This document shows positions 5,128 through 46,215 of a DNA stretch of 64,000 nucleotides, piece after piece. A program made the translations under genes and the position numbers. The notes under the pieces are model-generated. The model saw only the letters and a program-made list of their open reading frames with translations. It made no database searches and had not been told where the DNA came from. How positions within the stretch are numbered: the first letter of the stretch is position 1; every line of letters begins with the position of its first letter. Origin of the DNA: Pirellulaceae bacterium (lineage in GTDB: Bacteria > Planctomycetota > Planctomycetia > Pirellulales > Pirellulaceae); contig JBGSHS010000168.1 in NCBI GenBank assembly GCA_041752115.1, forward strand, positions 37,291 through 101,290, written 5' to 3'.

Positions 5128-5162
5128 GAGAACTTGTGATGACCGCAACGCTAACATCCGAC

Positions 5163-6437: not shown

Positions 6438-6486
6438 AGTAGGGTTCCCTCGTTCTGAGATTCGTCGAGCGTCTCCACCCGATCTG

Positions 6487-6936
6487 CTACGGAGTTGACT
6501 CCGCAGGTCGCACCACGAACTGGCCTTGATAGTCATCGGCTTTGTCCTTTCGAATCGGGATCGGTGATCCGGCGTAACCAAACGTTTTGGAGCGGGTGAC
6601 CGTCCCGATCGTGTAGGAGAATTTCAGCTGGTCACCCTCTCCGCGGGAAAGGCGCTGCAACACGCACTGCATTGTCTGTCCCGAAGGCTCGGTCACCGAC
6701 ATTCCGACCTCTGCCACGCCCGGATCCGTCATCGCCATGGCCTGCTCCACGCCATCCGGCGCGACGTAGACCAGCTCAACGGAGTAGTGTTGAACCGGTT
6801 CCGCCTTGGTAGTTACCTCGCCCGCAACGGAACTCGTCGTCTGGCTCGTTGCCACTTCGGACACGCGCTCACCGCAACCGGCCGTGAGCAACAGTGCTGA
6901 CAGCAGCACCATGCGAGAGGGTATGACATGTTTCAC
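6487..6936 (-). CDS. Hypothetical lipoprotein
   Basis: 149 aa. MKHVIPSRMVLLSALLLTAGCGER carries a lipobox (LLTAGC). No recognisable domain. Confidence 0.65.
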   Translation of the reverse strand: MKHVIPSRMVLLSALLLTAGCGERVSEVATSQTTSSVAGEVTTKAEPVQHYSVELVYVAPDGVEQAMAMTDPGVAEVGMSVTEPSGQTMQCVLQRLSRGEGDQLKFSYTIGTVTRSKTFGYAGSPIPIRKDKADDYQGQFVVRPAESTP

Positions 6937-7531
6937 GCTTCGCTCCTCACCGTCAAGAGTCGTGGAGGTCCGACGACCACGAAGCGCACCTCAGCCTCTT
7001 CCGACGACAACTGGCCGCACCCAACAGCCGACGCGAATATGATCATAACAGATCTTTCCCATCGGTCACCACGCTTATTCGGAACACCTACCGATGTGCG
7101 GGTGGAAATCGCTTCCCGCTGGCAGAGGGGGGCGCTGATTCGCGTCACCACGGCTCTTGGCTAAGCTGAGTGGCGGAGTCGGCACTTAACGGGAGCTTTC
7201 AATCGACTGCAGGTCTCATGGCAACCACGAACCGAGGTCGCGACAGCACCGGCGAAGGAGAGTCGACGCTGACACTCGTTTTCAGCGTCGCCAGAAACGA
7301 TTCGCTCGAGACGAATCCGGCCAAGGGGACTGAAACCGGGGAGCACGGCCTGGGAATCCGTCCTGTGGCAGCGCCCCCGCGTGGGGTTGCACGAACCAAT
7401 TCTTTGGGGTGACATCACCTATCGCAATGCGTGGGAAACAGCGATGGTCGGCGGTACGATCTCCGCAGTTGTTAGTCTCCCCTCTGTAACCGTTGACAGA
7501 ACGACGTTGATTTGGCCGCGAGTTGGCACAG

Positions 7532-10786: not shown

Positions 10787-11121
10787 AAAACCTCCTCTCG
10801 GGACAGATCGAGCAAATCCACCGCATCGTTCATTGTGCCGATGCGGCTGACCGGATCAAGCACCCAGCGGAGCGAGAGAAGCCTGCAATGCGCTCGCCGA
10901 CACACCACTGCAGAAATTCCGAGCCGCCACTTCCACCGCACCAGTCGTCCTGCCGGCCCCCAGGAATACCCGGCAGGGCGGCCCCTATTGGGCGGTCCCC
11001 AATCTCGCTCGATCTACAGGAATAATCCATCGGCGACAGGTCTCCTTTCTAGTGAGCAGATCATCTGCTGCGGATTGTCGGTACCGCAGAGTCTCAATCA
11101 CCCGATCACGGCACGGAGACC

Positions 11122-11502
11122 ATGCTGATCCTGCAAGAATCAATGCTCTTCTGGGGACACGTTGCCCTGGTCCTGTTCAACATGACCGGCTGGATGTTTC
11201 GCCAGACTCGCCGGCTGCATCTGGCCACATTTGGCCTGACGGCATTCTCCTGGTTTGCGCTCGGCGCCGTCTACGGATGGGGCTACTGCATTTGCACCGA
11301 TTACCACGCCGACGTGCTGGCTCGCCTCGGAAGCCCCGAGGCCGACCTCACCTTCATACAGCTCATGTTCCAGCGATTGCTCGGCATGCCTTCTGACCGG
11401 TCAACCGCCGATACGCTGGCCGTCGTCGTCTTCCTGTTGATCTGCTTCGCCACGGCCTTCGTCTGGACCCGCGTCTGGCTCCACCGTCGTGCGCGTCACT
11501 AG
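11122..11502 (+). CDS. Small integral membrane protein (DUF2784-like, tentative)
   Basis: 126 aa with 3-4 hydrophobic helices. GWGYCICTDYH sits where DUF2784 proteins carry GWxCPLT (recollection, unverified). Confidence 0.55.
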   Translation: MLILQESMLFWGHVALVLFNMTGWMFRQTRRLHLATFGLTAFSWFALGAVYGWGYCICTDYHADVLARLGSPEADLTFIQLMFQRLLGMPSDRSTADTLAVVVFLLICFATAFVWTRVWLHRRARH

Positions 11503-11699
11503 CTGGGCAGCGCCACGTCTCAAGCTGGATAGGATCTATCGCCGTAAGTCCTCTTCATCGGTGGCTATTGATTGCCGATTTGGCGAAGTGGCGCTGCCCA
11601 GCCAGGCTGTTGCCTGAAAGAGGCGCTCGCATCGCCTGGCCGGGAAGCCGGTGCCGGTCGCAGTCCGCAGGGCTCCGGCCCATCACTCCCACAGAACGC

Positions 11700-11746
11700 T
11701 TGACTTGCATAGCAGTGCTATGTATAACTTGCGTAGCACTGCTATG
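11700..11746 (+). promoter_or_regulatory. Sigma70-like promoter overlapped by two 15-bp palindromic operators upstream of padR
   Basis: TTGACT (11700-11705), a 17-nt spacer, then TATAAC (11723-11728). Palindrome CATAGCA-G-TGCTATG (11708-11722) fills the spacer. A second copy CGTAGCA-C-TGCTATG (11732-11746) lies over the predicted transcription start site (TSS). Confidence 0.5.
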
Positions 11747-11772
11747 TATCGGAGTCACTGGGAGGTTGTGTC

Positions 11773-12114
11773 ATGTCTCAATCGAAGGAGTTGGTTGCCG
11801 CGTCGGCAACCCCCATGATTCTGGCGATTCTGAGTCGCGGTGAAAGCTACGGTTATGCCATTATCCAGGAGATCCGGGAGCTGTCGAACGAGCAGATTAC
11901 CTGGACAGACGGAATGTTGTATCCGGTGCTGCGGCGACTGGAGCAGCAGGGACTGTTGTCATCGTCATGGCGGATGGCTGAGTCGGGCAAGCGGCGGCGG
12001 TATTACCGCCTCAAGAAGGACGGCGAGAGGGCGCTGGGTGAACAGCGTTTGCAGTGGCAGCTCACTCACCGCGTTCTGCAGGCACTCTGGGAGAAATCGC
12101 CATGTTTGACTTGA
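11773..12114 (+). CDS. PadR-family transcriptional regulator
   Basis: 113 aa. ILAILSRGESYGYAIIQEI...WTDGMLYPVLRRLEQQGLL....E.GKRRRYYRLKKDGERAL is the canonical PadR winged helix-turn-helix (HTH). Confidence 0.9.
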   Translation: MSQSKELVAASATPMILAILSRGESYGYAIIQEIRELSNEQITWTDGMLYPVLRRLEQQGLLSSSWRMAESGKRRRYYRLKKDGERALGEQRLQWQLTHRVLQALWEKSPCLT

Positions 12115-29812: not shown

Positions 29813-31510
29813 ATGGCAAAGAGTGTCGAGAAGCGTTATGCGATTGGGGTCGATTACGGAACCAACAGTGTGCGAGCGCTCGTGGTTGATGGTCAGGATG
29901 GACGTGAGATCGCTACCTGTGTGTACAACTACCCCAGCGGTGAGGCGGGAATTCTGTTGGACCGCGGGGATCCGAATCTGGCCAGGCAGAATCCGGCCGA
30001 CTACATCGAAGGGTTTTACCAGAGCGTGAAGGGGGCGGTGCAGGCGGCGACGAAGCAGCGTGGATTTTCGGCTGAGAACGTGATCGGCATTGGCGTTGAC
30101 ACGACCGGCTCGACTCCCATTCCGGTAGATCGAGATGGCATGCCCCTGGCACTGCAGCCTGCGATGAAGAAGAACCTGGCCGCGCACGCCTGGCTGTGGA
30201 AGGACCACACATCCTATGCTGAGGCAGCGGAGATCACCCAACAAGCTGCCAAGTCCGGGGACGGTTATCTGGCCAAATGCGGCGGTTCGTACAGCAGCGA
30301 GTGGTATTGGTCGAAGATTCTGCACTGCAAACGCGTCGCGCCAAAGGTCTTTGCTGCTGCGTATTCGTGGGTCGAATTGGCGGACTTCATTCCCGGATTT
30401 ATCACGGGCAACCTGGACCCTGATACGATGCCGCGCGGTATCTGTGCCGGCGGGCATAAGGCCATGTACCACGAACAGTGGGGCGGGTTACCCAGCAAAG
30501 CGTTTTTGAAGAGCGTTGATCCGGGGCTGGCATCGCTACGTGATCATTATGCGGCCCCTGCGAAATGTTCGGACCAGTCGGCTGGTCAACTGACGGCCGA
30601 GGTGGCACGGAAGGTTGGCCTTCCCGCGGGAATCGCCGTGGCGGTTGGAGCCTTTGATGCACATATGGGGGCCGTCGGTGCTGGGATCAAGCCGGGTACA
30701 CTGGTCAAGATCATCGGCACGAGCACTTGTGACATGATGGTGACACCGATCGATCGGTCGCTGCCCGACATCCCCGGTCTGTGCGGGATTGTGCCGGGAT
30801 CGATCATCCCGGGAATGTACGGGCTGGAGGCTGGGCAGTCGGCTGTGGGCGACATTTTCAACTGGTTTGTGAAACACCTTGCTCCGGCCGAGTACACGAG
30901 CCAGGGTGATCCTCACGTGAATCTGACCAGAGTCGCCGCTCGGCTCAAGCCGGGTGAAAGCGGCTTGCTCGCCTTGGATTGGAACAACGGAAATCGGACC
31001 ATTCTGGTCGATCCACTCCTGTCAGGCCTGCTTGTGGGACAGACGCTGCACACAACGGCTCCGGAGATCTACCGCGCTCTGGTGGAGGCCACCGCCTTTG
31101 GTGCGCTGATGATCATCAATCGACTGGAAGAATACGGCGTTACGGTTAAAGAAGTGGTCAACTGCGGCGGCATTGCAGAGAAGAATCCCTTTGTCATGCA
31201 GATCTATGCCGACGTCACCGGGCGGCCCATGAAGATCAGCCGGAGCGCCCAGACCTGCGCGTTGGGCGCGGCCATTTTCGGTGCCGTGGTGGGTGGAGCT
31301 CACAAGTCGGTCGAGGCGGCGCAGCGGAAGATGACGGGTACCAAACCAGACTACTATCGTCCTAACAAGGCAGCTGTGCGGGTCTATGCCGAGCTGTATG
31401 CGCTGTACCGCGAACTGCACGATGCGCTGGGTACTCGCGACTATGCCGGCCAACTCGGCCAGGTCATGAAGAAGTTGATTGCCGTACGCGAAAGGGAGAG
31501 AAGGGGCTGA
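29813..31510 (+). CDS. araB: L-ribulokinase
   Basis: 565 aa. YAIGVDYGTNSVRALVVD...NYPSG...QNPADY and the length and architecture are typical of AraB (FGGY kinase family). Confidence 0.9.
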   Translation: MAKSVEKRYAIGVDYGTNSVRALVVDGQDGREIATCVYNYPSGEAGILLDRGDPNLARQNPADYIEGFYQSVKGAVQAATKQRGFSAENVIGIGVDTTGSTPIPVDRDGMPLALQPAMKKNLAAHAWLWKDHTSYAEAAEITQQAAKSGDGYLAKCGGSYSSEWYWSKILHCKRVAPKVFAAAYSWVELADFIPGFITGNLDPDTMPRGICAGGHKAMYHEQWGGLPSKAFLKSVDPGLASLRDHYAAPAKCSDQSAGQLTAEVARKVGLPAGIAVAVGAFDAHMGAVGAGIKPGTLVKIIGTSTCDMMVTPIDRSLPDIPGLCGIVPGSIIPGMYGLEAGQSAVGDIFNWFVKHLAPAEYTSQGDPHVNLTRVAARLKPGESGLLALDWNNGNRTILVDPLLSGLLVGQTLHTTAPEIYRALVEATAFGALMIINRLEEYGVTVKEVVNCGGIAEKNPFVMQIYADVTGRPMKISRSAQTCALGAAIFGAVVGGAHKSVEAAQRKMTGTKPDYYRPNKAAVRVYAELYALYRELHDALGTRDYAGQLGQVMKKLIAVRERERRG

Positions 31511-31864
31511 CCTGCGAGCGTGACAGGTCGCTGTCGTCCTCCCCACTCCAGATCGACGATCGCGATTTCGCGCGGCGCTGCTGCCAGTGAAGAATGACCA
31601 GACACCCAATGACGAAACAAGCCCGAGCGTCGAACCGGAAACAAGTTCCCCATTTGTTTCTGGCAGGCTGGTTCGGCAATCGGATAGGACGTTCGTCATG
31701 AGGTACTTCGTCATTCGACATTTCGCGAGGTGTTGCCGAATCGCGCACGGTCGTTTCGAGTCGGTCAGGCCCCGGAGAAGTCACAGGTCGCATTGCTCCT
31801 GATGCGGCCCCCCTGAACGCCCCTTTCGTCCCTCAAACAAGGGTAGATTCCAACGGGTGATGCC

Positions 31865-32554
31865 GTGTTAGAACAACTCAAAGCAGAAGTATGCCAGGCG
31901 AATCTGGATCTCGTCTCGGCCGGACTCGTGACGTTGACGTGGGGTAACACCAGCGCGCGGAGTGACGATGGAAGGTTCGTCGTCATCAAGCCCAGCGGCG
32001 TTCCGTACGATCAGATGTTGCCCGAACACATGGCGGTAGTCGATCTGGATGGAAAGCTGGTCGAAGGCGATCTGCGCCCTTCCTCAGATACCGCTACGCA
32101 TCTGATTCTCTATCACCATTTCCCGCAGGTTCACGGGATTACGCACACGCACAGCAGGCGGGCCACGGCATTCGCCCAGGCGCGACGGGAGATACCCTGT
32201 CTGGGGACCACCCACGCCGATCACTTCTGCGGAAATGTCCCGGTCACCCGCCCCCTGACGCGCGGGGAAGTGGACGAGACCTACGAAGCAAACACGGGGA
32301 AGGTGATCGTTGAGCGATTCGAGAACCTGGATCCTGTGGCGATGCCCGCCGTGCTGGTGGCCGGTCACGGGCCGTTCACCTGGGGCACCAGTGCCGCCGA
32401 ATCGGTTCAGAACGCTGTGGCCCTGGAGGCGGTGGCGGCGATGGTCCTTGATACGTACCAGTTGCGATCCGACGCTCCCCCGCTGGAAGCGTACGTCCTG
32501 GAAAAACACTATCAGCGCAAACACGGAACGCACGCGTATTACGGTCAGAAGTAA
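31865..32554 (+). CDS. araD: L-ribulose-5-phosphate 4-epimerase
   Basis: 229 aa, GTG start. MLEQLKAEVCQANLDLVSAGLVTLTWGNTSARS..GRFVVIKPSGVPYDQM closely parallels E. coli AraD. Confidence 0.9.
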   Translation: MLEQLKAEVCQANLDLVSAGLVTLTWGNTSARSDDGRFVVIKPSGVPYDQMLPEHMAVVDLDGKLVEGDLRPSSDTATHLILYHHFPQVHGITHTHSRRATAFAQARREIPCLGTTHADHFCGNVPVTRPLTRGEVDETYEANTGKVIVERFENLDPVAMPAVLVAGHGPFTWGTSAAESVQNAVALEAVAAMVLDTYQLRSDAPPLEAYVLEKHYQRKHGTHAYYGQK

Positions 32555-32769
32555 GGAGACGATGCTGGGCAACCGCCCTGGCCATGAGGTACAGTAGGGC
32601 CTGCTGCCGAGCGGGAGAGGATTGACGGGGAGGGCTTGTGAGAGCACCCGGAACTGAACTTCCGGCAAGGATCGGGGCGCCCCGGCAGCGTAGTGCGTCG
32701 GATTGCATGCTGTCCACGATGGTATCCGGAACGACTTGTTTCATGCCAAGCGCAGGGAGAAAATGAGCG

Positions 32770-34278
32770 GTGACCGAATTCAATCGCCTGGAAGTCTGGT
32801 TTGCCACAGGAAGCCAGCATCTATACGGTCCGGAAGTCCTCAAGCAGGTGGAAGCCGATGCGCAGCAGATTGTGGCCGGATTGGATCATTCCGCCTCACT
32901 ACCCATTAAGCTGGTGGCGAAACCGGTTCTCACGACACCGCAGGCGATTGCCCAGTTGTGCTTGGAGGCGAATCGAGACCCGCATTGCATCGGGTTGGTG
33001 ACGTGGATGCACACGTTCTCGCCGGCCAAGATGTGGATTGCCGGCCTGACGGCGCTGCAGCGCCCGCTGGCTCACCTGCACACGCAGTTCAACCGGGATA
33101 TTCCCTGGTCGACCATCGACATGGACTTCATGAATCTGAATCAATCGGCCCATGGCGGGCGAGAGTTCGGATTCATCTGCAGTCGTCTGCGAGAGAACCG
33201 CAAGGTGATGGTCGGGCATTGGGAAGATCCAGTGGTACAGCAGCGTTTGGGCCAGTGGATGCGAGTCGCAGCGGCCTGGCACGACTGGCAACGGGCAAGA
33301 ATTGCTCGCATCGGCGATAACATGCGTGAAGTGGCGGTCACGGAGGGGGACAAGGTCTCGGCGCAGATCCAGCTTGGGTTTGCCGTCAACGGATATGGCA
33401 TCGGCGATCTGGTCAGGTATGTCAGCGAGGTTTCGGAAGCCGATGTCAAGCAGTTGTGCGCTGCGTATGATCAGCAGTATCGCATGGCACCGGCGCTGCG
33501 TCCTGACGGTGACCGGCGTGAATCACTGGAAGAGGCCGCGCGTATTGAGCTGGGATTGCGAGCGTTTCTGACCGAGGGAGGGTTTGCCGGTTTCACGGAT
33601 ACCTTTGAGGATCTGCACGGCCTGCGGCAGCTTCCGGGGCTGGCGGTGCAGCGGCTGATGGCCGACGGATATGGCTATGGTGCTGAGGGAGATTGGAAGC
33701 ACGCGGCGCTGGTGCGCGCGATGAAGGTGATGTCGAGCGGTTTGGAGGGGGGCGTCAGCTTCATGGAGGATTACACCTATCATTTCGATCCGACCGGCTC
33801 GAAGGTGCTCGGGGCGCACATGCTGGAGATCTGCCCGTCCATCGCCGCGGAACAACCCTCGTGCGAAATTCACCCGCTGGGTATCGGCGGCAAGGAGGAT
33901 CCGGTGCGGCTGGTGTTTGATGCGCGGAGCGGGCCGGCTCTGAACGTCTCGCTGATCGACCTGGGAAACCGGTTTCGCATGGTGGTCAACCAGGTGGATG
34001 TCGTGGCTCCCGATGCTCCACTTCCCAGACTGCCGGTGGCCCGCGCGCTCTGGACGCCGAGGCCGACTCTGGAGGTGGCTGCTGCTGCCTGGATCCTGGC
34101 GGGAGGTGCCCATCACACGAGCTTTGCCCAGGCAGTAACGCTGGAACAGATGGAGGACTTTGCCGAGATGGCCAACATCGAGATGGTCGCTATTACCGAC
34201 GGCGTCGACCTGTCACGGTTCAAGCAGGAGCTGCGCTGGAACGAAATGTACTACCACCTGGCACGCGGATTACAGTAA
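32770..34278 (+). CDS. araA: L-arabinose isomerase
   Basis: 502 aa, GTG start. [21 protein letters not shown] and [22 protein letters not shown] match AraA hallmarks. Confidence 0.9.
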
Positions 34279-34413
34279 CATCACAGATCGGATTTGGCGT
34301 CCGGTGCGTTGTGGCGAATTTACCTGGCGGCGGACCGGCCGCCGAGGTACTCCCGGCTCTTCGACAGCGGACGATGCACCACCTCCCCGACAGTTCTTGA
34401 AAGGCGCGGAAAA

Positions 34414-36159
<1,746 letters not shown>

Positions 36160-36893: not shown

Positions 36894-37192
36894 GCTCTGC
36901 CTCCCGGCAGATCGACGAAGTCGTCTCATTGCCACCAGTCAGCCTGGTAGGTACGAGAAGAACAACTTCGGCGTTTCTCTTGCAGGCACGCTCGCGCAGA
37001 GCGTGAGAAACGGTAACCGCCGAAGTGATTCTTGCCGCGTTGCGAAGGGTGATGGTTGGTGCGTCGTGAGAATCTGGTTTGTGCAACGGCGGCGTGGCGT
37101 GTCTCGACCGGCTGACTGCATCGAGCAGGACACTGGCCAAGTCTGGCTCGCGCCGCATACAATGACGGTCAAACTCAGAGGAGCCTGCTGTT

Positions 37193-37606
37193 ATGAAACA
37201 GTCTGAATGGGCGATTGCCGTCATTCTGCGCATCATCGGTTACGCCGCACTGTGTGCGATTCCTGCCATTTTCTTCCCTTACAACTGGATGAACGCCATC
37301 CACGACACCATGGGATTGGGTCAGTTGCCGCACACGCCGATCGTGAGCTACTTAGCTCGATCTCTGTCGATGTTCTACGCGATGTTCGGCACGATTTGCC
37401 TGTTTGCAGCCAGCGACGTGCGCCGGCACGCGCCCCTGATCCGGCTCATTGCCATCCTTTCGATACTGCTTGGCTGCACCTTGTTCGGAATCGATTACGC
37501 CAGTGACATGCCGGCCCACTGGACCATTGTGGAAGGTCCATTCACCATTATCGTGGGCTGCCTCATTCTGTGGCTGCAGCGTCGCTGTGCGTACCGCACG
37601 CTCTAG
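37193..37606 (+). CDS. Hypothetical membrane protein (4 predicted helices)
   Basis: 137 aa with hydrophobic segments throughout. No recognised domain. Confidence 0.55.
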   Translation: MKQSEWAIAVILRIIGYAALCAIPAIFFPYNWMNAIHDTMGLGQLPHTPIVSYLARSLSMFYAMFGTICLFAASDVRRHAPLIRLIAILSILLGCTLFGIDYASDMPAHWTIVEGPFTIIVGCLILWLQRRCAYRTL

Positions 37607-37612
37607 CTGCGT

Positions 37613-37636
37613 GTAGCGCGAGCTTCAGCTCGCGAC
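37613..37636. repeat. REP-like hairpin element (family member 1)
   Basis: GTAG-CGCGAGC-TTCA-GCTCGCG-AC, a perfect 7-bp stem, starting 7 nt after the TAG stop (37604-37606), between convergent genes. Confidence 0.8.
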
Positions 37637-37741
37637 CTGCAGCTGTTTCCATCTTCCATCCGTGCAGGTCCGAGTGCATCTCCCACGATACGAGTTCGCG
37701 TGCCCTGTCCACCGGCCAACGCTGCGGCACTGCCAACGTGA

Positions 37742-38461
37742 TCAACGATCGTCCGCCGGCGTGGCCCGCGTCGTCAGGTCGCGCAGAGACTCGGCCAGCA
37801 CATCGAGCAGCTTCCGCCATCGTGGCCGGTCGGTCAGCCAGGCCTGGTTCACCTCCAATTCGATTCCGGCGTAGAGATGATCTGCGAATTGGCGGCGCAG
37901 GCAGGTCGTGAAACCGTCCGCTTTGCCGAGGTACGGGTAGTTGCGGCGCACTCGCAGGTCGCTTCGCAGGTCGCGTAAACGCGTGCGCCACGCCGCGCTC
38001 AGGAGTTTTTCGTGCCGGCGGCGCGGATCGTAGAGCAGGCCGATATCTGCTCGTCGAATCTGCCCGTTGAGCTGGGGCGTGAAGGTGTGCAGGGCGAGGT
38101 GCAGCACGAAAATTCCACGTTGGGTGATGGCCGAGATGGCGTCCGCCACTCGCTGCCGATGGGGGAGGTAATAGTGGTCGATTAGTTTCCTTTTCTCGGC
38201 TGTGCCGAGAGGAGCCGTGAACTGGGAGAAGAGTTGAGGATGTCCCAGGGACCGATTGGGCTCGATCAGCAGACGCGTGGTCGTGACTGCGTAGAGCGGC
38301 ACGCCCGATCGACGCGACAGGAACCTGCCCAATTCCAGTGAACCGGGATCAAAACCGCGATGACTTGCCAGCAAATCGCCGTGGCCGCGAAAGAGGCGGG
38401 CGTACGAGGGTGGAACGCGATTTCCTCCGTGTTCACACGACAATACGAGTTGCATAGTCAC
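37742..38461 (-). CDS. N-formylglutamate amidohydrolase (FGase)-family hydrolase
   Basis: 239 aa. LSCEHGGNRVP...HRGFDPG...LHTFTP...IGLLYDP...IELEVNQ match the FGase-family pattern. GTG 38461 overlaps the upstream stop; ATG 38455 is an alternative start. Confidence 0.75.
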   Translation of the reverse strand: MTMQLVLSCEHGGNRVPPSYARLFRGHGDLLASHRGFDPGSLELGRFLSRRSGVPLYAVTTTRLLIEPNRSLGHPQLFSQFTAPLGTAEKRKLIDHYYLPHRQRVADAISAITQRGIFVLHLALHTFTPQLNGQIRRADIGLLYDPRRRHEKLLSAAWRTRLRDLRSDLRVRRNYPYLGKADGFTTCLRRQFADHLYAGIELEVNQAWLTDRPRWRKLLDVLAESLRDLTTRATPADDR

Positions 38462-39705
38462 ATCAGGAACATCCTACCTGTTGAGAGGCACTCGCAGATA
38501 TTGCGATAGACGGGCATCAGCCGCTTTGGCAGGTTGTCGACCAAGGCGGCAGTGATTCGGCGCGAAAGCGGTCCATGCTCCAGGATCGTCCGCAATGGTT
38601 CTCGCCAGAACTCGGAGCTGCTTCCGCCTGACGCGATCCCCAGCGTCTGGTCGAGCAGATGGTGCCAGAGTTCCCTGGCGGTGCAGCAGCTTTCGGGATA
38701 ACCGAACTGAGCCAGATACTGGACATCCTGGAGCACTGCCTGTTCAGCCATTCGCGTCGTCTGTGACAGGATCCGCGCCAGCAAAGCAGTGTCGATCGAC
38801 TGCTGCGCTGCAGTGTCGGTCCATCGCTGCTGGCAGATCGCCTGCAGCACGCAGGCAATCGCATGGCAGATGGCAATATCGGCCTGAGGACACTCCTGAA
38901 TGTCGAGCACTCGGATTTCGATCGTGTTGCGTTCGAAGCGGGCAATGGCGCCTCGCGAGTTGAGCCATTCATGCTGAAGCGTACCGCCCGGATCCAGCGG
39001 AGCAATGTCATCGTACATCCGCTGAAAGATCTCGCGCCGGTAGTCAGACTGCGTGAAGACAGGTTCGGGCACCACGAGGCCCGTCAATGAGGGAACGCGT
39101 GCTGAGTTGGTACGGTAAACATCGAGCCGGGTGTCTTGCAGACCGGTGATCGATCCTTCGCGGACGGGTGAGCTGGCGGCCAGCGCGGGAAGGAGCGGCA
39201 GCAGGAGGCGGATCGCTGCGTGCAGTTGCCCAAACTCCCGGTCACCAGCAAACGGCAGATTCAGATGCACACTCTGCAGGTTGGCCCAGCCATGCCCGCG
39301 GCAGTCGAAGATGCGGTTATATGCTTCGTACACCGCATTGTATTCGTGCGGCCAGAGCTTGAGTTCCCGGTGTGGATCCATCCAAGGGTGCATTGCTGTG
39401 GGCATCAGCTGCGCGCCTCGAGGGGCCAGCAGCTGGTTGATCCGGACCACATCCTCCTGAAATCGTTGCGGCAGTGGGACCAGGCTTTCGGCCGGCCCGT
39501 TGGTCTTCAGTTCGATCACGTGCAGGGCCAGTTCGTTCGACCAGGCCAGTTGGTCCATTTCCACCTCAGACTCGTAGCGTCCCGCCACTTCCCAGAGCAC
39601 CTGATCGGTGATGGGACGGACTGAAAGCGTGTCCTGGTCGACGATCATGTACTCCAACTCGACGCCGTAGGCCTGAAACAGATGGAGGGGTGCCGGTTGG
39701 TTCAC
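38458..39705 (-). CDS. GCS2-type carboxylate-amine ligase (glutamate-cysteine ligase family 2-like)
   Basis: 415 aa. FQAYGVELEYMIVD...LHVIELKTNGP...HLNLPF are typical of the GCS2/YbdK-like fold. Confidence 0.7.
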   Translation of the reverse strand: MNQPAPLHLFQAYGVELEYMIVDQDTLSVRPITDQVLWEVAGRYESEVEMDQLAWSNELALHVIELKTNGPAESLVPLPQRFQEDVVRINQLLAPRGAQLMPTAMHPWMDPHRELKLWPHEYNAVYEAYNRIFDCRGHGWANLQSVHLNLPFAGDREFGQLHAAIRLLLPLLPALAASSPVREGSITGLQDTRLDVYRTNSARVPSLTGLVVPEPVFTQSDYRREIFQRMYDDIAPLDPGGTLQHEWLNSRGAIARFERNTIEIRVLDIQECPQADIAICHAIACVLQAICQQRWTDTAAQQSIDTALLARILSQTTRMAEQAVLQDVQYLAQFGYPESCCTARELWHHLLDQTLGIASGGSSSEFWREPLRTILEHGPLSRRITAALVDNLPKRLMPVYRNICECLSTGRMFLM

Positions 39706-39920
39706 AGCGGGTGTTCTCGTGGCGGAGAGAAGTGGTGAGTGAGTAACAACGTGGTCGCTGAAGAGATCCTGTTAAGCCGGCGATCGCGTTCCTGTGGCAC
39801 GCCGGTCCCAAGGAGGCGTGGCGAAGTACCGCACGACGAACGAGGTCCGCAAAGCGAATTGTCGACGTGGAGTCGAGTCGCGTGAGGGGCTGGTGGCAAA
39901 TTGGTTCGGCATCAGGTAGT

Positions 39921-39970
39921 CGTCATTGGGTATTTCGTCATTCGTCATTCGTCATTCTCTCGGCGTCATT
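39921..39970. repeat. CGTCATT heptamer cluster (5 copies, 3 in perfect tandem at 39936-39956)
   Basis: Lies in the 297-bp gap between the GCS2-like and ATP-grasp genes. The related TTCGTCATTCGACATT occurs at 31707-31722. Confidence 0.8.
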
Positions 39971-40002
39971 CAGGCGGACGTTGCCGCCTCACGCGCGGTT
40001 GT

Positions 40003-41475
40003 CTAGCGTCCCACGCGTGCCTTGCGGTGTTCGACGCGCCGAAGAAACACGTCGATGATCCGTCGATACAGATCGTCCTTCAGTACCCGGTCTTCGTAGC
40101 CGTAATTCACGTTCGGGTTGTCATTGACTTCAATCACATGGAAATGGCCGTTCGACTGCTTAACATCCACACCATAGAGGCCGTCCCCGATGAGATTGGC
40201 CGCCTTGAGGGCTGCTTTCACGGCGCGTCGCGGAGCCAGTTCGACCGGCACCGTTTCGGCGCGCCCATACCGGCGCTGATTCGGGCCATCCCGCTGGACG
40301 ATCTGCCAATGCCCTTTGGCCATGTAGTACTTGGCGGCAAACAACGGCTGCAGATCGAGAATGCCAATCCGCCAGTCGAAGACCGTGGGCACGAATTCCT
40401 GCGCCACGACCAGATCAGAATTCGTGAAGAACTCGCGCAGCTTCACTTCCAGTTCCACTTCGGTCTCGACTTTGACGACGCCCAGGGAAAACGAACTGTC
40501 CGGCTTCTTTAAGACACACGGGAATCCCAGTTGCTGCGGAATTAACGAAACATTGCCCGGGTGCACCACGATCGTGCGCGGTGTGGGAACGTTGTGCCGG
40601 TTCATCAATTCGGCCAGATAGACCTTGTTCGTACAACGCACGATCGATTGCGGATCGTCGATGACGACAAGTCCCTCGCTGGCCGCTCGGCGAGAGAACC
40701 TGTACGTGTAATGATTCACGTTCGTCGTATCGCGGATGAACAGAGCATCGAATTCAGCGATGCGCCCGTAGTCATCACGTGTGATCATCTCGGCACTCAT
40801 GCCAGCCGACTCGGCCGCTTTGACGAACTTGCGCAGAGCGACGTCATCCGAGGGGGGTTCCGGATCGTCGGGATTATGGAGAATGGCCAGGTCGAATCGG
40901 GGCTGCGTCTTGCGCTTGACGCTGGTGCCTCGCCCGGCGAAGTGCTTGGTCGCGACATCGATCACGAATGGCCAGTGCGCCTGAGGCACCTCGTTGGCCG
41001 CAATCGTGACCACACGCCGCAGTTGCCATCCCTGCTTCTTGTCCCGTGCAAACTCCGCCCGCAACAGCGGAGACTGGAACTGGTTGAACAAATGCAGACT
41101 CAGACGCTCATACCGCTTGGCAGTGTTCCGGCCGAAGTAAATGCTGAGCGTAAAGGTGTCGGACTTGATCGGCGCCAGGCTCTTCTGAATCAGCTCCTCT
41201 AACTCTTCCGATGCCATGCGGACGATGGCCTGCGTCTTCAAGTCCTGCAGCGTGGCGATGTTCGGCAACGGTTTGTGCCCCCGGGCCTCCGCCAGCAAGG
41301 ACACGTAGTAGCCGGTGCTCTGGTAGCGGTAGGAGCGGCAGAGATTGATGACCTTCGCCCCTCGCCGTTCACTGAACTCCGGATGCGTTAAATAGGAGCG
41401 AGCGTCGACCACTTCGACGTTCGCAATCTCGAAAGGCCAGTCGGTCGGCGAACTGGCAACTACGAGAATCGTCAT
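40003..41475 (-). CDS. RimK-family ATP-grasp ligase with N-terminal RLAN-type domain
   Basis: 490 aa. N-terminus ...KVINLCRSYRYQSTGYYVSLLAEARGHKPLPNI (RimK-like ATP-grasp N-terminal domain, recollection). ATP-grasp core PCVLKKPDSSFSLGV, VAQEFV, GVDVK...HVIEVNDNPN. Confidence 0.8.
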   Translation of the reverse strand: MTILVVASSPTDWPFEIANVEVVDARSYLTHPEFSERRGAKVINLCRSYRYQSTGYYVSLLAEARGHKPLPNIATLQDLKTQAIVRMASEELEELIQKSLAPIKSDTFTLSIYFGRNTAKRYERLSLHLFNQFQSPLLRAEFARDKKQGWQLRRVVTIAANEVPQAHWPFVIDVATKHFAGRGTSVKRKTQPRFDLAILHNPDDPEPPSDDVALRKFVKAAESAGMSAEMITRDDYGRIAEFDALFIRDTTNVNHYTYRFSRRAASEGLVVIDDPQSIVRCTNKVYLAELMNRHNVPTPRTIVVHPGNVSLIPQQLGFPCVLKKPDSSFSLGVVKVETEVELEVKLREFFTNSDLVVAQEFVPTVFDWRIGILDLQPLFAAKYYMAKGHWQIVQRDGPNQRRYGRAETVPVELAPRRAVKAALKAANLIGDGLYGVDVKQSNGHFHVIEVNDNPNVNYGYEDRVLKDDLYRRIIDVFLRRVEHRKARVGR

Positions 41476-41534
41476 CAGGTCCTCCTTGCATGCGCTGGCC
41501 GCCTATCTCCACAGACAGCCATGTGAACCAGATT

Positions 41535-42263
41535 TCAGCGAGTGCTTCTTCGGTGCGGTGTGATGATCAACAGATTGGCATCATAGGTCAAGACCCCCAG
41601 CAGAATGGCACAAATGAGTCGATCCAGTCCGACCTCATAATAATGCTCGAGGCCGAAAGGATTGGGAAGATAAGGATCGGCCACGGAGACCTTGCGCAAC
41701 AGTTTGTCATACCCGCACAAAACCACGAAGTGACCAGTGGCTGAGCCATGCACATCATCCGGCCGGCCGTCATGCCCCAGTTCGCGGGGATCCGTGTACA
41801 AGTAAGTGGAACAGAGACCAGTGAGGATCGGGATGGAGCGGTTAAGGTAGCGGCGAATCAAAGCGCCGTTGAGATCCTGCATCTGTATCGTGCCGCCTTG
41901 CTGTAGGAACTGGACGTAGGCCAAACTGGCTGTCCGCAGTCGAGGGGACTCCTTGACCGCCATCTGAGCTCTCAGTCGTTGGATCAGGTCCGGCCCTCCC
42001 GGCCGAAACCAAGTGGGATCGAATACTTCCAGATTGTACGTGTAAATCGACGCGTCGAAGCCGCGCTGCAGAGCATCACACCCCAACAGCACGGCCAGCG
42101 TACCACCATGTTGTAGAGTGGGTACGTCGAGAATTAACTGGCCCAGCGGGAGCTCTAAGCCGAAATATCGGTACACGGCATGCAAACAGGTAGGCCCGCA
42201 CGTCGTGTTATCTGGTTGCGGCAGGATGTCAAGGCGAAGTTGTTTCTGCAAGGGAGTGCTCAA
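41535..42263 (-). CDS. Papain-fold C39-like cysteine peptidase/transferase
   Basis: 242 aa. QPDNTTCGPTC (Gln-x5-Cys) and GHFVVLCGYD...VADP give a Gln/Cys/His/Asp arrangement typical of C39-like enzymes. Confidence 0.65.
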   Translation of the reverse strand: MSTPLQKQLRLDILPQPDNTTCGPTCLHAVYRYFGLELPLGQLILDVPTLQHGGTLAVLLGCDALQRGFDASIYTYNLEVFDPTWFRPGGPDLIQRLRAQMAVKESPRLRTASLAYVQFLQQGGTIQMQDLNGALIRRYLNRSIPILTGLCSTYLYTDPRELGHDGRPDDVHGSATGHFVVLCGYDKLLRKVSVADPYLPNPFGLEHYYEVGLDRLICAILLGVLTYDANLLIITPHRRSTR

Positions 42264-42640
42264 CCACTAACGTGCTTGCCGATGGGGCATAGTGAGTAGA
42301 CGCTAGCAATCAAGAATCGGACCTGTTGCCGCCGGCCGAAGTGACCAGGAGGCGTCATCGTCTGCCGCCGATACGCCTGGATCGCATGGTCACCATGCGA
42401 TGTCCAATGGCCGCGACCGCCTGGGGATAGAGGGAATCCCAGCCCGCGCGGGTGGAATCGGCCAGAACCACCACTCTGCCGCCAGCGGTAATCTGGCTGA
42501 TCCGGCTCCCGGCTGCCAGGGCAACAACAGGAGAATTGTAGCGATCGGCTGCAGTCACGGGAATGCCAGGATCCCTTCCCCGGTCTGGTGTCGGGCTTGG
42601 CTCGCCTAGCCCGACTGGTGGCCGACGGCGGTCGCCGACC

Positions 42641-43003
42641 CGATCGGCCTGTCGTGGTCTGAATCGCGACGCGGCTTTCCTCTGGCAGAGTGTCTGCTTT
42701 CCTGTCTGTGGCTTGCTTTCCTGGAATTCCGCATTGTCGCAGTGTGGCATTGTCGCGTTCCCTATTCCCGTTCCACTGTCGATCGGCCTGTCGTGGCCTG
42801 AATCGCGACGCGGCGCCACCAGGCGCAGAGTGTCTGCCTTCCCTCCCTCTGCCAGGCGCAGGGTGTGTGCTTTCCCCTGTCTCCTGGAATTCCGCATTGT
42901 CGCAGTGAGGCATTGTTGCATTCCCTGTTCCCGTTCCACTGTCGATCGGCCTGTCGTGGCCTGAATCGCGACGCGGCTTTCCTGGCAGGGTGTCTGCTTT
43001 CCT
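42641..43003. repeat. Tandem array of a 139-163-bp unit (2 full copies + ~60-bp partial)
   Basis: CGATCGGCCTGTCGTGG(T/C)CTGAATCGCGACGCGG recurs at 42641, 42780 and 42943. Each full unit contains GTGTCTGC.TTCC...CCGCATTGTCGCAGTG.GGCATTGT.GC.TTCCCT.TTCCCGTTCCACTGT. Confidence 0.85.
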
Positions 43004-43141
43004 CATCGCGCCATGCCTCTGGTACCCGAGCCTACCGCATAGCCAGAGAGCCTGTGAGCACTTGCTCACTCAAACCGCGAGGCGCGCTCGCAAGGCATCG
43101 GCCCCGGGCCCGCCGACGTTCCGGCCCGGGATTGTCTACGG

Positions 43142-44929
43142 TCACTGGCCCGTTCGCCTCAGCCGACTGACCAGTAGCCCGGCGAGCAGAATTGCGAGCG
43201 TGCCGAACACGGGAATCAGAAATGCATGGAAGGGGCTGCTCCAGCTTTGGCTCGCCTGCTTGAGCCACACTCCCCATTGTTCGGCTGGTCCGTCCGGCTT
43301 CTGGGCCATGAGGAATTCGACCAGTTTGGGAAATGACATCCAGAGGATTGTCACGATCCCGATGAGCACACCGGTAACCGCTGCCGGATTCCTGGCACGG
43401 CGGCTGATCATTCCCAGCAGGAACAGTCCGCACATGCCGCCGCCGAAGATCCCGGAGAGGGTCCACCAGATATCCAGAGCACTCTCGGTCAACCGAATCA
43501 GTGCCAGAGCCATGGCTGTGCCCAGGACGCCCCACGCGACGGTGCTAGCGTAGAGCACGCGCATGGACTGCCGCTGCGTGGCTTTGGGACGAATGAACCG
43601 CTGGTAGTAATCGCTCAGCAGCAGGGTAGCCGACGAGTTCAGGCTGGTCGATATCGTGCTCATGGCGGCCGCAAAGATGGCTGCAATCAACAAGCCGGTA
43701 AGGCCGGGCGGGAGGTGTTTCGCGATGAAGTGTGGAAACACGCGATCGCCAATGTCCTTGCTGGTAAGTTCTGTCGCCTGATCGTCCAGTTCAAGCTGGT
43801 AAGCGGTTGAGAACCGTGTTCGTTCGACGTTGTCGTATTGTGGATTGACTCCGTGCTGCATGAGGCGTTGCCGCGCCACAAGCTGCTTGACCTCCGTGAT
43901 CTCGCCTTCATGTTCGGGAGCGTGATAGAAGACGAACAGGGACGTGCCGATCAGGAAGAACAGTGCCGATACGGGGACGTAGAGCAGCGCTCCCAGCCAC
44001 ACGCTCTTGCGGGCCTCCCGGTCGCTGCTCGACGCAATGTAACGCTGGATATAACTCTGATCGATCCCGAAGTTCTGCAGATTGCTGAACAGGCCGTAGA
44101 GCAGTACCACGAGAAACGTCGCCGATCTGCCGTCCAACCACAGCACACCTTGGAAGTTGCCTGCGCCGAATTCGCCGAGGCTGAGTTTTCCTGATTCGTG
44201 CGCAGTGCGAATCACCTGCGGCAGGCCGCCGTCGACGTTGAGCAGCAGCACGAGCAGGCAGACAACGGCCCCGGCCATCAACACGATGGCTTGAACTGCA
44301 TCGGCCCAGATCACGGCGATGATACCGCCCACAAACGAGTAGACAGTGACGGAAACACCGGTGACCAGAATGACGATGCGGATGTCCCAGCCGAAGATGA
44401 CCGCCATCGGCAGAGCCATCAGGTACATGACCACTCCCATCCGCGCGATCTGCGTCAGCAGGTAGAAGACGCTGGCGTAGATTCGTGCCCAGACGCCGAA
44501 ACGATGCTCCAGCAGAGCGTACGCCGACACCTCCCCACTGGCTCGGTAGTAGGGCAAGAACCAGCGGGCGGCAATCCAGGCGGCCAGTGGAATCGACAAG
44601 CTGAACACAAACGGGTTCCAGTTCGTTACGAACGACTTGCCCGGAAGGGCCAGATAGCTGATGCTGCTCAAATAGGTCGCAAAGATGGAAAGTCCGCAGA
44701 CCCAGCCAGGCAGAGCGCGGCCGGCAGCTGTGAAACCTTCGGTCGTCCGGCTGCGTCGCCAGAAGTAGAAGCCGATCGACATCGTCACGGCGAAATAGAC
44801 GACCAGGATGAACCAATCGAGTGGTTGGAAATGGCTGTTCAACGGACGACCTGCTGTTGCGAGTGAGGAACGCTGCCGGAAACAGATGTCACTTGCCGCC
44901 CGATCTCTGCACTCCGCAGCCGCATCCAA
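43142..44929 (-). CDS. Sodium:solute symporter family transporter
   Basis: 595 aa, multi-pass. The FTAAGRALPGWVCGLSIFATYLSSISYLALPG region is typical of SSF proteins. The exact start is uncertain. Confidence 0.8.
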   Translation of the reverse strand: MDAAAECRDRAASDICFRQRSSLATAGRPLNSHFQPLDWFILVVYFAVTMSIGFYFWRRSRTTEGFTAAGRALPGWVCGLSIFATYLSSISYLALPGKSFVTNWNPFVFSLSIPLAAWIAARWFLPYYRASGEVSAYALLEHRFGVWARIYASVFYLLTQIARMGVVMYLMALPMAVIFGWDIRIVILVTGVSVTVYSFVGGIIAVIWADAVQAIVLMAGAVVCLLVLLLNVDGGLPQVIRTAHESGKLSLGEFGAGNFQGVLWLDGRSATFLVVLLYGLFSNLQNFGIDQSYIQRYIASSSDREARKSVWLGALLYVPVSALFFLIGTSLFVFYHAPEHEGEITEVKQLVARQRLMQHGVNPQYDNVERTRFSTAYQLELDDQATELTSKDIGDRVFPHFIAKHLPPGLTGLLIAAIFAAAMSTISTSLNSSATLLLSDYYQRFIRPKATQRQSMRVLYASTVAWGVLGTAMALALIRLTESALDIWWTLSGIFGGGMCGLFLLGMISRRARNPAAVTGVLIGIVTILWMSFPKLVEFLMAQKPDGPAEQWGVWLKQASQSWSSPFHAFLIPVFGTLAILLAGLLVSRLRRTGQ

Positions 44930-44967: not shown

Positions 44968-46065
44968 TTACTTGGTGGTCTGCAGCGGTTTCGAGGTGGC
45001 CAAGGCAATTACGCGCCCCTGATCTCCCACCGCACAGTAGAAGTGGTACACCACGCCATCATGTTTGAGCAGCCAGGGCTTATGGGCGTACTGCTGATCC
45101 CAGGGCTCGCTCGGCTTGATCAAATCGGGCCCATCCCACTTGGTCCAATGCACCAGATCTCGGGAGCAGGCAAACGTATCGAAAGCGTCCGGCTTCCAGA
45201 ACGCTCCGAAATAGAACATGACCCACAGGTCGCCGATGCGCGTCACCTGCGGATCACCGCTGATCACATTCGTGGTTCGGTCAGGGTGGCAGTTTTCGAG
45301 CACAAATGAGTCGCCGTAACGCTTCCAGTGCGTCATATCGCCTGACACAGCGATGCCAATCCGTTCTGTGCCTTGTGGATGGCGCGCATTGTAGAACATC
45401 ACATAGGGTGCCCCCAGAGTCTTCTGTGGGTCGTGCATGATATGGGTTTTGAACAGGGTGTCTCGTTCGAACGCGCGTGCATCGGCATCGGCAGGACGCA
45501 GGACCGGCTCGGGCAGTTTCTGCCAGGGTTGTGCGCTGTTCGGTTCTCTGGTCCAGGCGAGTGACACCGACAGCGGCGGTGTTTCGTAACCGGGCTGATG
45601 TCCTCCCAGGTATGACATCCAGTACTTATCCTGGAACGTCCCCAGCGTATTGGTCCCCCCCCAGTTCACGTCGAACAGGGCCAATCCCCCGGCCGCTTGG
45701 CACTGGTCCCAGCTTCCCGCCTCGCCACGCGGCAGAATCGTCCCGAGCGGCTGCCACTCAAGTAAATCGGCGCTGGTTGCCAGCTGTGTGGTGTATCCGA
45801 CCGGATCGTCTTCCAGCTGAATGTAAACCATGTACCAGCGGTCGTGGTACCGAAAGACGTTGGGGCAGTCGATCATCTTGCCGGGAGGTGCGGGGATCAC
45901 GACTCCGTACTTGAACGGCGTCTTCACTTCGTCAAACACCGCCTGCATGCGATCGGGATCGATCGACACCGGAGTCGCCAGCACGTGGTCTTCGGATCGC
46001 GTGTGCGTGGCGACACAAACCGACCCGATCATGACCGACAACGTTAACCAGGTGAGCCGATTCAT
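44968..46065 (-). CDS. Secreted five-bladed beta-propeller glycoside-hydrolase-like protein (GH43/GH130-type superfamily; family unassigned)
   Basis: ORF 44968-46176. ATG 46065 gives signal MNRLTWLTLSVMIGSVCVA. CPNVFRYHDRWYMVYI, YWMSYLGG, YVMFYNA and VYHFYCA recur as blade-like motifs. Lies directly upstream of the SSF gene on the same strand. Confidence 0.55.
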   Translation of the reverse strand: MNRLTWLTLSVMIGSVCVATHTRSEDHVLATPVSIDPDRMQAVFDEVKTPFKYGVVIPAPPGKMIDCPNVFRYHDRWYMVYIQLEDDPVGYTTQLATSADLLEWQPLGTILPRGEAGSWDQCQAAGGLALFDVNWGGTNTLGTFQDKYWMSYLGGHQPGYETPPLSVSLAWTREPNSAQPWQKLPEPVLRPADADARAFERDTLFKTHIMHDPQKTLGAPYVMFYNARHPQGTERIGIAVSGDMTHWKRYGDSFVLENCHPDRTTNVISGDPQVTRIGDLWVMFYFGAFWKPDAFDTFACSRDLVHWTKWDGPDLIKPSEPWDQQYAHKPWLLKHDGVVYHFYCAVGDQGRVIALATSKPLQTTK

Positions 46066-46215
46066 AAGCGGGTTGGTCTTTCGTGTGGCAGGAAGAAGAG
46101 GCAGACGCGATATGTCCGAGATTTCTGCTGGAACCGGAACGCTCCGCCGGTCATTCCTCGAGTAACATGCGGCCACCTGGCGGCGAGGAGCAGGGGAGGT
46201 GAGCCGGATCCCGCG

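Follow-up and report, generated by a model that had tools for sequence, protein, structure and literature searches.

We describe a cassette of four co-directional minus-strand genes at positions 37742-42263 of a 64,000-nt window (the whole stretch of DNA that was analysed: positions 37,291-101,290, forward strand, of contig JBGSHS010000168.1, assembly GCA_041752115.1) from a Pirellulaceae bacterium. In the order of the operon, the open reading frames (ORFs) encode a C39-like papain-fold protein, an ATP-grasp ligase that joins an RLAN domain to a RimK-type catalytic domain (RLAN-RimK), a GCS2/YbdK-type carboxylate-amine ligase and a hydrolase of the N-formylglutamate amidohydrolase (FGase) family. 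Judged by sequence comparison, this is a real operon of two predicted ATP-dependent ligases and one or two putative amide hydrolases or transferases, conserved across phyla. The function we favour, tentatively and a little short of calling it probable, is that of a cytoplasmic, self-contained operon which draws on common metabolites to make, and also to trim or recycle, a short peptide or amide conjugate that contains glutamate. A preliminary description of the locus had proposed such build-and-trim synthesis. That proposal remains the best supported one, and we still infer it.

The operon becomes apparent when the locus is compared with other genomes. An exhaustive representative protein search returned 2285 proteins at E ≤ 1e-3, of which 481 reached E ≤ 1e-30. 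We aligned 38 diverse homologues from it for a scan of one genome per species, followed by tblastn with the four window proteins; this gave 81 distinct loci, spread over about 15 phyla, of which 69 have the genes in the order C39, RLAN-RimK, GCS2. An arrangement that recurs so often and over so many phyla is far beyond chance. Conservation of the gene neighbourhood, to which the preliminary description had looked for support, is thus strongly in its favour. Median intergenic gaps in cassette order are about 5, -1 and 2 bp (the -1 bp lying between RLAN-RimK and GCS2), and median identities to the window proteins are 56% for RLAN-RimK, 54% for C39, 51% for GCS2 and 47% for FGase. Judged by their record titles, the hosts belong to the Planctomycetota, Acidobacteriota, Nitrospirota, Desulfobacterota, Balneolaceae, Verrucomicrobiota, Myxococcota, Spirochaetota, Gemmatimonadota, Nitrospinota, Omnitrophota, Fibrobacterota, Sumerlaeota, Bacteroidota (Pontibacter) and the Beta- and Gammaproteobacteria (Thiobacillus thioparus, Nitrosomonas, Lentisalinibacter). 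Legionella adelaidensis has RLAN-RimK, GCS2 and FGase. Cultured genera with the cassette include Blastopirellula, Novipirellula, Thiobacillus, Pontibacter and Legionella.

Not all four genes are equally constant. FGase directly follows GCS2 in 42 of the 69 colinear loci; nine loci end too early to tell, and 15-18 have no adjacent FGase gene despite more than 900 bp of sequence after GCS2. The conserved core therefore consists of three genes (C39, RLAN-RimK and GCS2), with FGase as a frequent accessory, since 69 loci keep the three-gene order and only 42 have FGase next to it. Hence the four-gene cassette first described stands as a co-directional, conserved operon, but its fourth gene is missing from loci that have room for it. 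The same description had seen no gene for a precursor, carrier or exporter in the window, and this holds throughout: when the ORFs of 80 or more amino acids (aa) in the 81 loci were clustered, no fifth conserved gene emerged. The next commonest neighbours are generic kinases and transporters, in at most nine loci each, and the intergenic gaps are too short to conceal a small precursor.

The two ligases are also found joined in one protein. Single-chain RLAN-RimK-GCS2 fusions of 721-984 aa occur in three separate clusters at 50% identity (P0238, P0241, P0256). On this Rosetta-stone evidence we expect the two ligases to act together. The 297-bp gap between the two ligase genes, which had been noted at the outset, is present in the window, but it is a local peculiarity because the ligase genes elsewhere abut or fuse. 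The overlap of the FGase start with the GCS2 stop was also correctly described: the GTG start of FGase overlaps the stop by 4 bp, the alternative start being an ATG 2 nt past the stop. FGase is translationally coupled to GCS2. For the C39 gene an alternative start is a TTG at 42251, four codons inward, which gives the 238-aa form found in the database (P0271). The RLAN-RimK gene has an AAGGAGG Shine-Dalgarno sequence 6 nt upstream. The G+C content of the cassette (0.58-0.60) is like that of the remainder of the window and gives no hint that the genes were acquired recently. The best protein hits point to a Pirellulales-like member of the Planctomycetota.

Family membership was judged at a broad level by Pfam gathering scores and at a fine level by the curated cut-offs of NCBIfam. 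At the broad level all four families originally named were recovered: Peptidase_C39_2 (PF13529; 38.0 bits, cut-off 24), RLAN (PF14401; 168.8 bits, cut-off 25) together with RimK (PF08443; 34.8 bits, cut-off 21), GCS2 (PF04107; 99.9 bits, cut-off 21) and FGase (PF05013; 68.8 bits, cut-off 28.9). The motifs quoted with these names are all found in the translations: the C39-like protein contains QPDNTTCGPTC at aa 16-26 and GHFVVLCGYD at aa 177-186, GCS2 has GVELEYMIVD at aa 14-23, and FGase has SCEHGGN at aa 8-14. At the fine level, none of the four proteins exceeds any curated NCBIfam cut-off. By these scores all four are members of named superfamilies or Pfam families, and none would count as an equivalog of a characterised enzyme. 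The ligases are not canonical RimK or GshA, given that they do not reach the respective equivalog cut-offs. No signal peptide is apparent at the N-termini of the four proteins when their translations are read directly. Anti-phage defence models in PADLOC gave no match to any of the four at E ≤ 0.001, and a reading of the cassette as a defence system was dropped.

Are the four proteins likely to be working enzymes? We determined per-residue conservation among cross-phylum orthologues (70 of C39, 81 of the ATP-grasp protein, 78 of GCS2 and 48 of FGase). Since the active-site residues are invariant or nearly so, all four are predicted to be active.

The ATP-grasp ligase has the domain architecture RLAN (aa 25-171) plus RimK-like ATP-grasp (aa 283-474), with a pre-ATP-grasp region at about 190-280 between them; the extra N-terminal domain of about 200 aa that had been noticed in this protein is RLAN. 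Residues K284, K323, R369, D437, E449 and N451 are at least 98% conserved, and the ATP-binding lysine K323 and the Mg-binding E-x-N (E449 and N451, in VIEVNDNP) are intact, as in an active ATP-grasp enzyme. The nearest solved structures are those of Pseudomonas RimK (7qyr/7qys; E 9e-11), which match the catalytic domain only (aa 240-467). The residues of this RimK that contact ADP or poly-Glu are known from its structure paper (PMC10092738). In a phmmer alignment to 7qyr, K141 corresponds to K323 of our ligase, E178 to E360, R64 to R248, R189 to R369 and N262 to N451, and the mapped contact set also takes in E449. These positions are at least 98% conserved, save E360, which is the majority residue and falls outside the list of 90% conserved positions. 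The poly-Glu contacts (R64, R189, N262) align with the invariant R248, R369 and N451. This set of residues would be compatible with ligation of glutamate and is not specific for ribosomal protein S6. The preliminary description had named a canonical RimK that simply glutamylates S6 as a finding that would speak against its reading. Such a RimK does not fit the scores, which are 32.1 bits against the equivalog for S6-Glu ligase (NF007764; cut-off 331) and 66.4 bits against the wider RimK family (TIGR00768; cut-off 143.4).

Our best lead on RLAN comes from structure prediction. An AlphaFold2 model of aa 1-190 (window 40906-41475) has a mean predicted local distance difference test score (pLDDT) of 88.0. 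Its top 47 or so matches in the PDB are all ATP-grasp enzymes (ArgX, LysX, Ddl, synapsin, RimK, PsnB), with E-values down to 7.5e-5 and TM scores of 0.5-0.58 on the query; the root-mean-square deviations are large. As a tentative lead from this model, RLAN may be a degenerate, catalytically dead ATP-grasp-like module. Sequence methods do not confirm the likeness, and an origin of RLAN by internal duplication of the ATP-grasp half was rejected: hhalign between the two halves gives E 0.056, which is not significant, and the RLAN profile has no match among PDB sequences.

In GCS2 the GhExE signature (G14-V-E16-L-E18), a motif that forms the Mg/ATP site (PMC2588565), is intact. Conservation of at least 98% is found at G14, E16, E18, N57, E58, H62, E65, H106, H138, R251, R259, R265 and E271. 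In a profile search of solved structures the nearest is E. coli YbdK (1r8g; E 6e-5), followed by plant glutamate-cysteine ligase (GCL), and PafA and Dop were not found. We can reject a glutamate-cysteine ligase of the GshA/EgtA kind. The best score against the YbdK and GshA equivalogs of NCBIfam is 56 bits (PRK13515; cut-off 371) and the score against EgtA is 21.8 bits (cut-off 370.8), far below the range of 249-427 bits in which the GshA/EgtA cut-offs lie.

The FGase-type protein is at least 98% conserved at E10, H11, H34, D38, R63, N69, R70, H121, H125, E151, E201 and E203. It thus has the putative His/Glu/Asp metal ligands and substrate-binding Arg residues of its family. Its nearest solved structure is the uncharacterised protein Atu2144 (2odf; E 2e-17), and the structure of a bona fide FGase (2q7s) is a weak match (E 0.0036). 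NCBIfam has no match for it and no hut genes lie nearby in the window. For these reasons we do not regard it as HutG proper.

The C39-like protein reaches the Peptidase_C39_2 score given above and stays just under that of PF03412 (21.5 bits, cut-off 22); NCBIfam has no match for it. Conservation reaches at least 98% at Q16, C22 and H178, and at least 90% at D196. These residues would correspond to the catalytic set of papain and C39 enzymes, with Gln as the oxyanion hole, and place the protein among the C39-like peptidases. Its AlphaFold2 model (pLDDT 86.6) finds the C39 domains of PCAT1 and ComA as the best Foldseek matches in the PDB (E 5e-6; TM score 0.75, normalised on the 140-aa targets). 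The further matches, in order, are the pseudomurein isopeptidase PeiR, Nostoc Alr0975 and the amide synthase CtaG. Alr0975 is a "primitive phytochelatin synthase", and the matched structures include its glutathione acyl-enzyme. Residues ~83-141 of the model, some 60 aa, form a helical insert that the C39 core lacks. The protein is cytoplasmic as far as its sequence tells. A bacteriocin-processing peptidase of the PCAT/ComA type is not what we see: the protein is stand-alone, and neither an ABC transporter gene nor a precursor gene is conserved beside it in the 81 loci.

If the cassette makes a small glutamate-containing peptide, the steps could be as follows. GCS2 would activate a carboxylate, most likely the gamma-carboxylate of glutamate, and join it to the amine of a metabolite X to give gamma-Glu-X, a step modelled on YbdK, GshA and EgtA. 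RLAN-RimK, by the model of RimK, MptN, CofF and RIMKLA, would activate the free alpha-carboxylate and add one or more alpha-linked glutamates, giving gamma-Glu-X-Glu(n). The FGase-type hydrolase might cut the terminal N-acyl-Glu bond and so erase the RLAN-RimK step. With its Cys and His, the C39-like enzyme would form an acyl-thioester and then hydrolyse or transfer the peptide; precedents are phytochelatin synthase, which acts on glutathione, and BtrH and CtaG, which act on acyl donors.

Several observations favour a small product over a protein. To our knowledge the GCS2 and FGase families have small-molecule precedents only, which argues for a small molecule here too. The papain-fold enzymes phytochelatin synthase, BtrH and CtaG are a further argument, since they use small gamma-glutamyl or acyl substrates. 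Stand-alone variants of RLAN-RimK that are fused to a GNAT domain point in the same direction because they suggest N-acyl-dipeptide chemistry: by analogy, such a fusion may pair an N-acylating step with a Glu-ligase step, following the logic of N-acetylaspartylglutamate (NAAG) synthesis. Genes for transporters of the major facilitator superfamily (MFS), which are occasional neighbours, are a further reason to think of a small product. In four loci such a gene is no more than about 2 kb away from the cassette; it is directly adjacent in three of them (L014, L019, L074) and takes the position of FGase in two Phycisphaerae loci. Last, a small molecule is favoured because no tag, precursor or carrier gene is linked to the cassette in the 81 loci. 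For other GCS2-like neighbourhoods, Iyer et al. (2008) argued from such an absence of linked genes for the synthesis of glutathione-like peptides and against protein conjugation (PMC2588565).

Other points weigh against this reading. RimK proper and LysX/ArgX act on protein C-termini, and C39 domains normally cut peptides after Gly-Gly. The cross-phylum identity of 47-56% would equally fit recognition of a conserved macromolecule. Adjacency to MFS genes is rare (4 of 81 loci). In addition, FGase and sometimes C39 are dispensable; therefore the full scheme of four steps is not universal.

These points lead to the alternatives. It is conceivable, if unlikely, that the cassette reversibly modifies a protein or peptide. 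RLAN-RimK would then add C-terminal alpha-Glu residues to a protein, such as S6 or some other conserved one, whose gene lies elsewhere. Much as PafA does with Pup, GCS2 would join the gamma-carboxylate of the new terminal Glu to a lysine or a small amine. The C39-like enzyme would cut after Gly-Gly or serve as a de-conjugating isopeptidase, and FGase would trim the terminal Glu. RimK, LysX and ArgX indeed act on protein C-termini, and RimB-type proteases trim the products of RimK (PMC10092738; PMC11957791). Within the GCS2-like superfamily, PafA and Dop join the gamma-carboxylate of a C-terminal Glu to Lys (PMC2588565). Structurally, the C39-like protein comes closest to Gly-Gly leader peptidases and to the isopeptidase PeiR, the high conservation across phyla suits a macromolecular partner that is itself conserved, and the GNAT domain fused to some relatives resembles the RimI-type protein acetyltransferases, though it scores below the cut-off. 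However, the surroundings of the cassette in the 81 loci hold no conserved gene for a tag, target or carrier, the GCS2 profile finds YbdK and GCL and not PafA or Dop, the precedents of the FGase family are small-molecule ones, and the ligase falls far short of both the S6-Glu ligase and the RimK family models (32 against 331 bits for the former). A more specific version, which we consider rather improbable, is a pupylation-like tagging and editing system that would be widespread outside the Actinobacteria and whose target or tag would be encoded elsewhere in the genome. In such a system the C39-like enzyme might expose a C-terminus (for example after Gly-Gly), RLAN-RimK might ligate a C-terminal Glu to it, GCS2 might join the gamma-carboxylate to lysine or another amine, and FGase and C39 might reverse the marks. 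It would differ from Pup in that the C-terminal Glu is obtained here by ligation and there by deamidation.

One could also turn the direction of the pathway around. As a catabolic or salvage module, the hydrolases would be the chief enzymes and would degrade Glu-containing peptides, either imported or endogenous (gamma-glutamyl peptides, poly-Glu, N-acyl-Glu), and the ligases would re-route the glutamate. The enzyme after which the FGase family is named has a catabolic role, in histidine utilisation. Sugar-catabolism and solute-symporter genes flank the cassette in the window, with the synteny kept in close relatives, and a stand-alone homologue in P. aeruginosa lies beside ggt and a Glu/Asp ABC transporter. 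We nevertheless find this very doubtful: the invariant core consists of two ATP-consuming ligases and C39, FGase being the dispensable part, the flanking genes are not conserved across phyla, and the fusion of the two ligases points to synthesis. Finally, the four genes might be neighbours without a shared function, or the ATP-grasp protein might be a canonical RimK acting on S6. The 297-bp gap can be read as a split into two transcription units, and source annotations of relatives do say "ribosomal protein S6 modification protein". Against this stand a gene order shared by 69 of the 81 loci over about 15 phyla, in which the gaps are near 0 bp, the fusion of the ligases in three clusters, scores far below the curated RimK cut-offs and the RLAN domain, which is foreign to RimK. 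Comparative sequence data effectively refute this last explanation, and we give it next to no weight. What probability remains belongs to functions outside the readings considered.

Relatives of RLAN-RimK outside the cassette show what else this ligase can be combined with. RLAN-RimK is fused to GNAT at either end in P0140, P0168, P0184, P0189 and P0164, and in metagenome loci the GNAT-fused genes are stand-alone, with no C39, GCS2 or FGase. We considered whether these might be Ngg, the synthetase of N-acetylglutaminylglutamine amide (NAGGN), and rejected it, as P0140, P0168, P0184 and P0189 have no match to TIGR03103. A gene that fuses GNAT to a CN_hydrolase (nitrilase-superfamily) domain lies beside the cassette in four loci, in one of them (L081) between GCS2 and FGase; the window has none. 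Nitrosospira, Azospirillum and P. aeruginosa have RLAN-RimK as a stand-alone gene. In P. aeruginosa this gene (plasmid record NZ_CP133752, 6905-8494 in locus L103; 43.6% identity) is annotated "RimK family alpha-L-glutamate ligase" and has pagP, the Glu/Asp ABC transporter and ggt as neighbours. From these neighbours and the PAO1 map, it appears to be PA1345 of PAO1. In Nitrosospira sp. Nsp1 (L075) the stand-alone gene sits between two glutathione S-transferase genes, at 5142-5852 and 10852-11862. No other locus repeats this, and we treat it as probably due to chance. A shared upstream partner of the stand-alone homologues was also discarded because the upstream ORFs of L070 and L075 are unrelated. 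Deletion of the 490-aa "rimK" of Francisella, FTT0178, did not attenuate the bacterium (PMC2675058); this protein may be a homologue of the RLAN type.

The coordinates of all features are collected in Table 1.

Table 1. Features of the cassette and its surroundings in the window, and fusion genes beside the cassette in other loci
Feature	Position	Strand	Length	Remarks
C39-like papain-fold cysteine peptidase or transferase	41535-42263	minus	242 aa	first gene of operon
RLAN + RimK-type ATP-grasp ligase	40003-41475	minus	490 aa	
Spacer between the two ligase genes	39706-40002	minus	297 bp	
GCS2/YbdK-type carboxylate-amine ligase	38458-39705	minus	415 aa	
FGase-family (N-formylglutamate amidohydrolase-like) metallo-amidohydrolase	37742-38461	minus	239 aa	
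Intergenic region upstream of the C39 gene	42264-43141	minus	878 bp	presumably with promoter
Hydrophobic, membrane-like ORF	37193-37606	plus	137 aa	converges on FGase gene
FGGY kinase-like ORF	29813-31510	plus		
AraD-like aldolase	31865-32554	plus		
AraA	32770-34278	plus		
Sodium:solute symporter	34294-36159	plus		
Second symporter	43142-44929			other side of cassette from arabinose set
GH43-like gene	44968-46176			other side of cassette from arabinose set
GNAT + CN_hydrolase fusion genes in other loci	L003:8321-9880; L024:~5685-7169; L081:10784-12337; L052:3-767			

Two intergenic regions of the cassette are unusually long in the window. The spacer between the ligase genes contains a run of AATGACG heptamers at 39930-39990. 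A 15-mer of this run has three matches where 0.16 would be expected; a near-copy lies at 31708-31722. Relatives with 87% identity do not share the spacer. A precursor gene in it was rejected, as the only ORFs there, of 26-65 aa, are not conserved either. It is probably a local, non-functional expansion. The region upstream of the C39 gene carries three direct copies of a 35-96-nt repeat (at 42641-42703, 42719-42843 and 42882-43003) that is found nowhere else in the window; in the 87%-identical relatives L106 and L107 this region measures about 240 bp, against 878 bp here. We rejected a regulatory RNA in either region, as Rfam has no family match anywhere in 37000-43300 and the spacer is not conserved in close relatives. 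Both regions look like local intergenic expansions that lie outside the system.

Further out, an L-arabinose utilisation set occupies 29813-36159 on the plus strand, and a second symporter and a GH43-like gene lie on the other side of the cassette. The synteny of GH43, sodium:solute symporter, cassette, sodium:solute symporter, araA and araD is kept in L106 and L107. For the small hydrophobic ORF that converges on FGase, neither Pfam nor NCBIfam has a match, and other loci do not keep it next to the cassette.

Full-text literature searches found no paper that mentions RLAN or PF14401 and no functional study of a member, and searches on PA1345 and FTT0178 yielded no functional data. A paper on Klebsiella CfmP deals with TupA-like ATP-grasps and is not relevant to the cassette. 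The cassette thus appears to be a planctomycete member of a kind that comparative genomics has predicted, and that is apparently without experimental characterisation in the literature found. That about 50% identity has been kept over some 15 phyla implies a product of general physiological value. This could be a peptide similar to glutathione or to an osmolyte, or a new protein mark. As a compact, self-contained unit without accessory genes, the cassette lends itself to direct study by heterologous expression and liquid chromatography-mass spectrometry. Knowing the product would also give a function to a large share of the database entries that now read no more than "RimK family protein", "carboxylate-amine ligase" or "hypothetical protein".

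How does the cassette compare with known systems? Synthesis of glutathione and phytochelatin (GshA, GshB and phytochelatin synthase) likewise combines a ligase of the GCS superfamily, an ATP-grasp enzyme that extends the C-terminus and a papain-fold enzyme that forms a cysteine acyl-enzyme on a gamma-Glu peptide, and the model of the C39-like protein does match the Nostoc phytochelatin synthase. In contrast, the cassette ligases are not equivalogs of GshA or GshB, the ATP-grasp enzyme is of the RimK type (which adds Glu, not Gly) and carries RLAN, the papain-fold protein is nearer to C39 than to C83, and nothing points to Cys as a substrate. The RimK/RimB system (RimABK) has the same RimK-like catalytic domain, with conserved ADP and poly-Glu contacts, and pairs a ligase as "writer" with hydrolases as "erasers". 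It differs in that the cassette ligase has low identity to RimK, scores below its curated cut-offs and has an extra RLAN domain of 190 aa, that its hydrolases are C39-like and FGase and not a retropepsin, and that a second ligase, GCS2, is obligatory. Pupylation (PafA/Dop/Pup) shares the GhExE motif, a reversing hydrolase and a GCS2-superfamily ligase that, by analogy, may act on the gamma-carboxylate of Glu, whereas the cassette has no linked Pup-like gene or proteasome context and its ligase groups with YbdK, not PafA. GspSA and the butirosin enzymes BtrJ/BtrH/BtrG use CHAP or BtrH where the cassette has a C39-like protein, and the cassette has neither an acyl carrier protein nor a ligase-amidase fusion; like the cassette, they join an ATP-grasp ligase to a papain-fold amidase or acyltransferase that works on gamma-glutamyl amides of small molecules.

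The closest counterpart is a prediction. In 2009 Iyer, Abhiman, Burroughs and Aravind (in Mol Biosyst 5:1636) reportedly described an RLAN-RimK/GCS2 (COG2170) neighbourhood and predicted that it makes peptide metabolites or tags. We take the Pfam family RLAN (PF14401) to derive from that work, its name recording the RimK-like context. That neighbourhood reportedly has the same domain set as our cassette, together with peptidase or amidohydrolase genes, and there is no essential difference between the two. New in our study are the three-gene core with FGase as an accessory, the fusions of the two ligases, the distribution across some 15 phyla with identities of about 50% and, tentatively and from a structure model, an ATP-grasp-like fold for RLAN.

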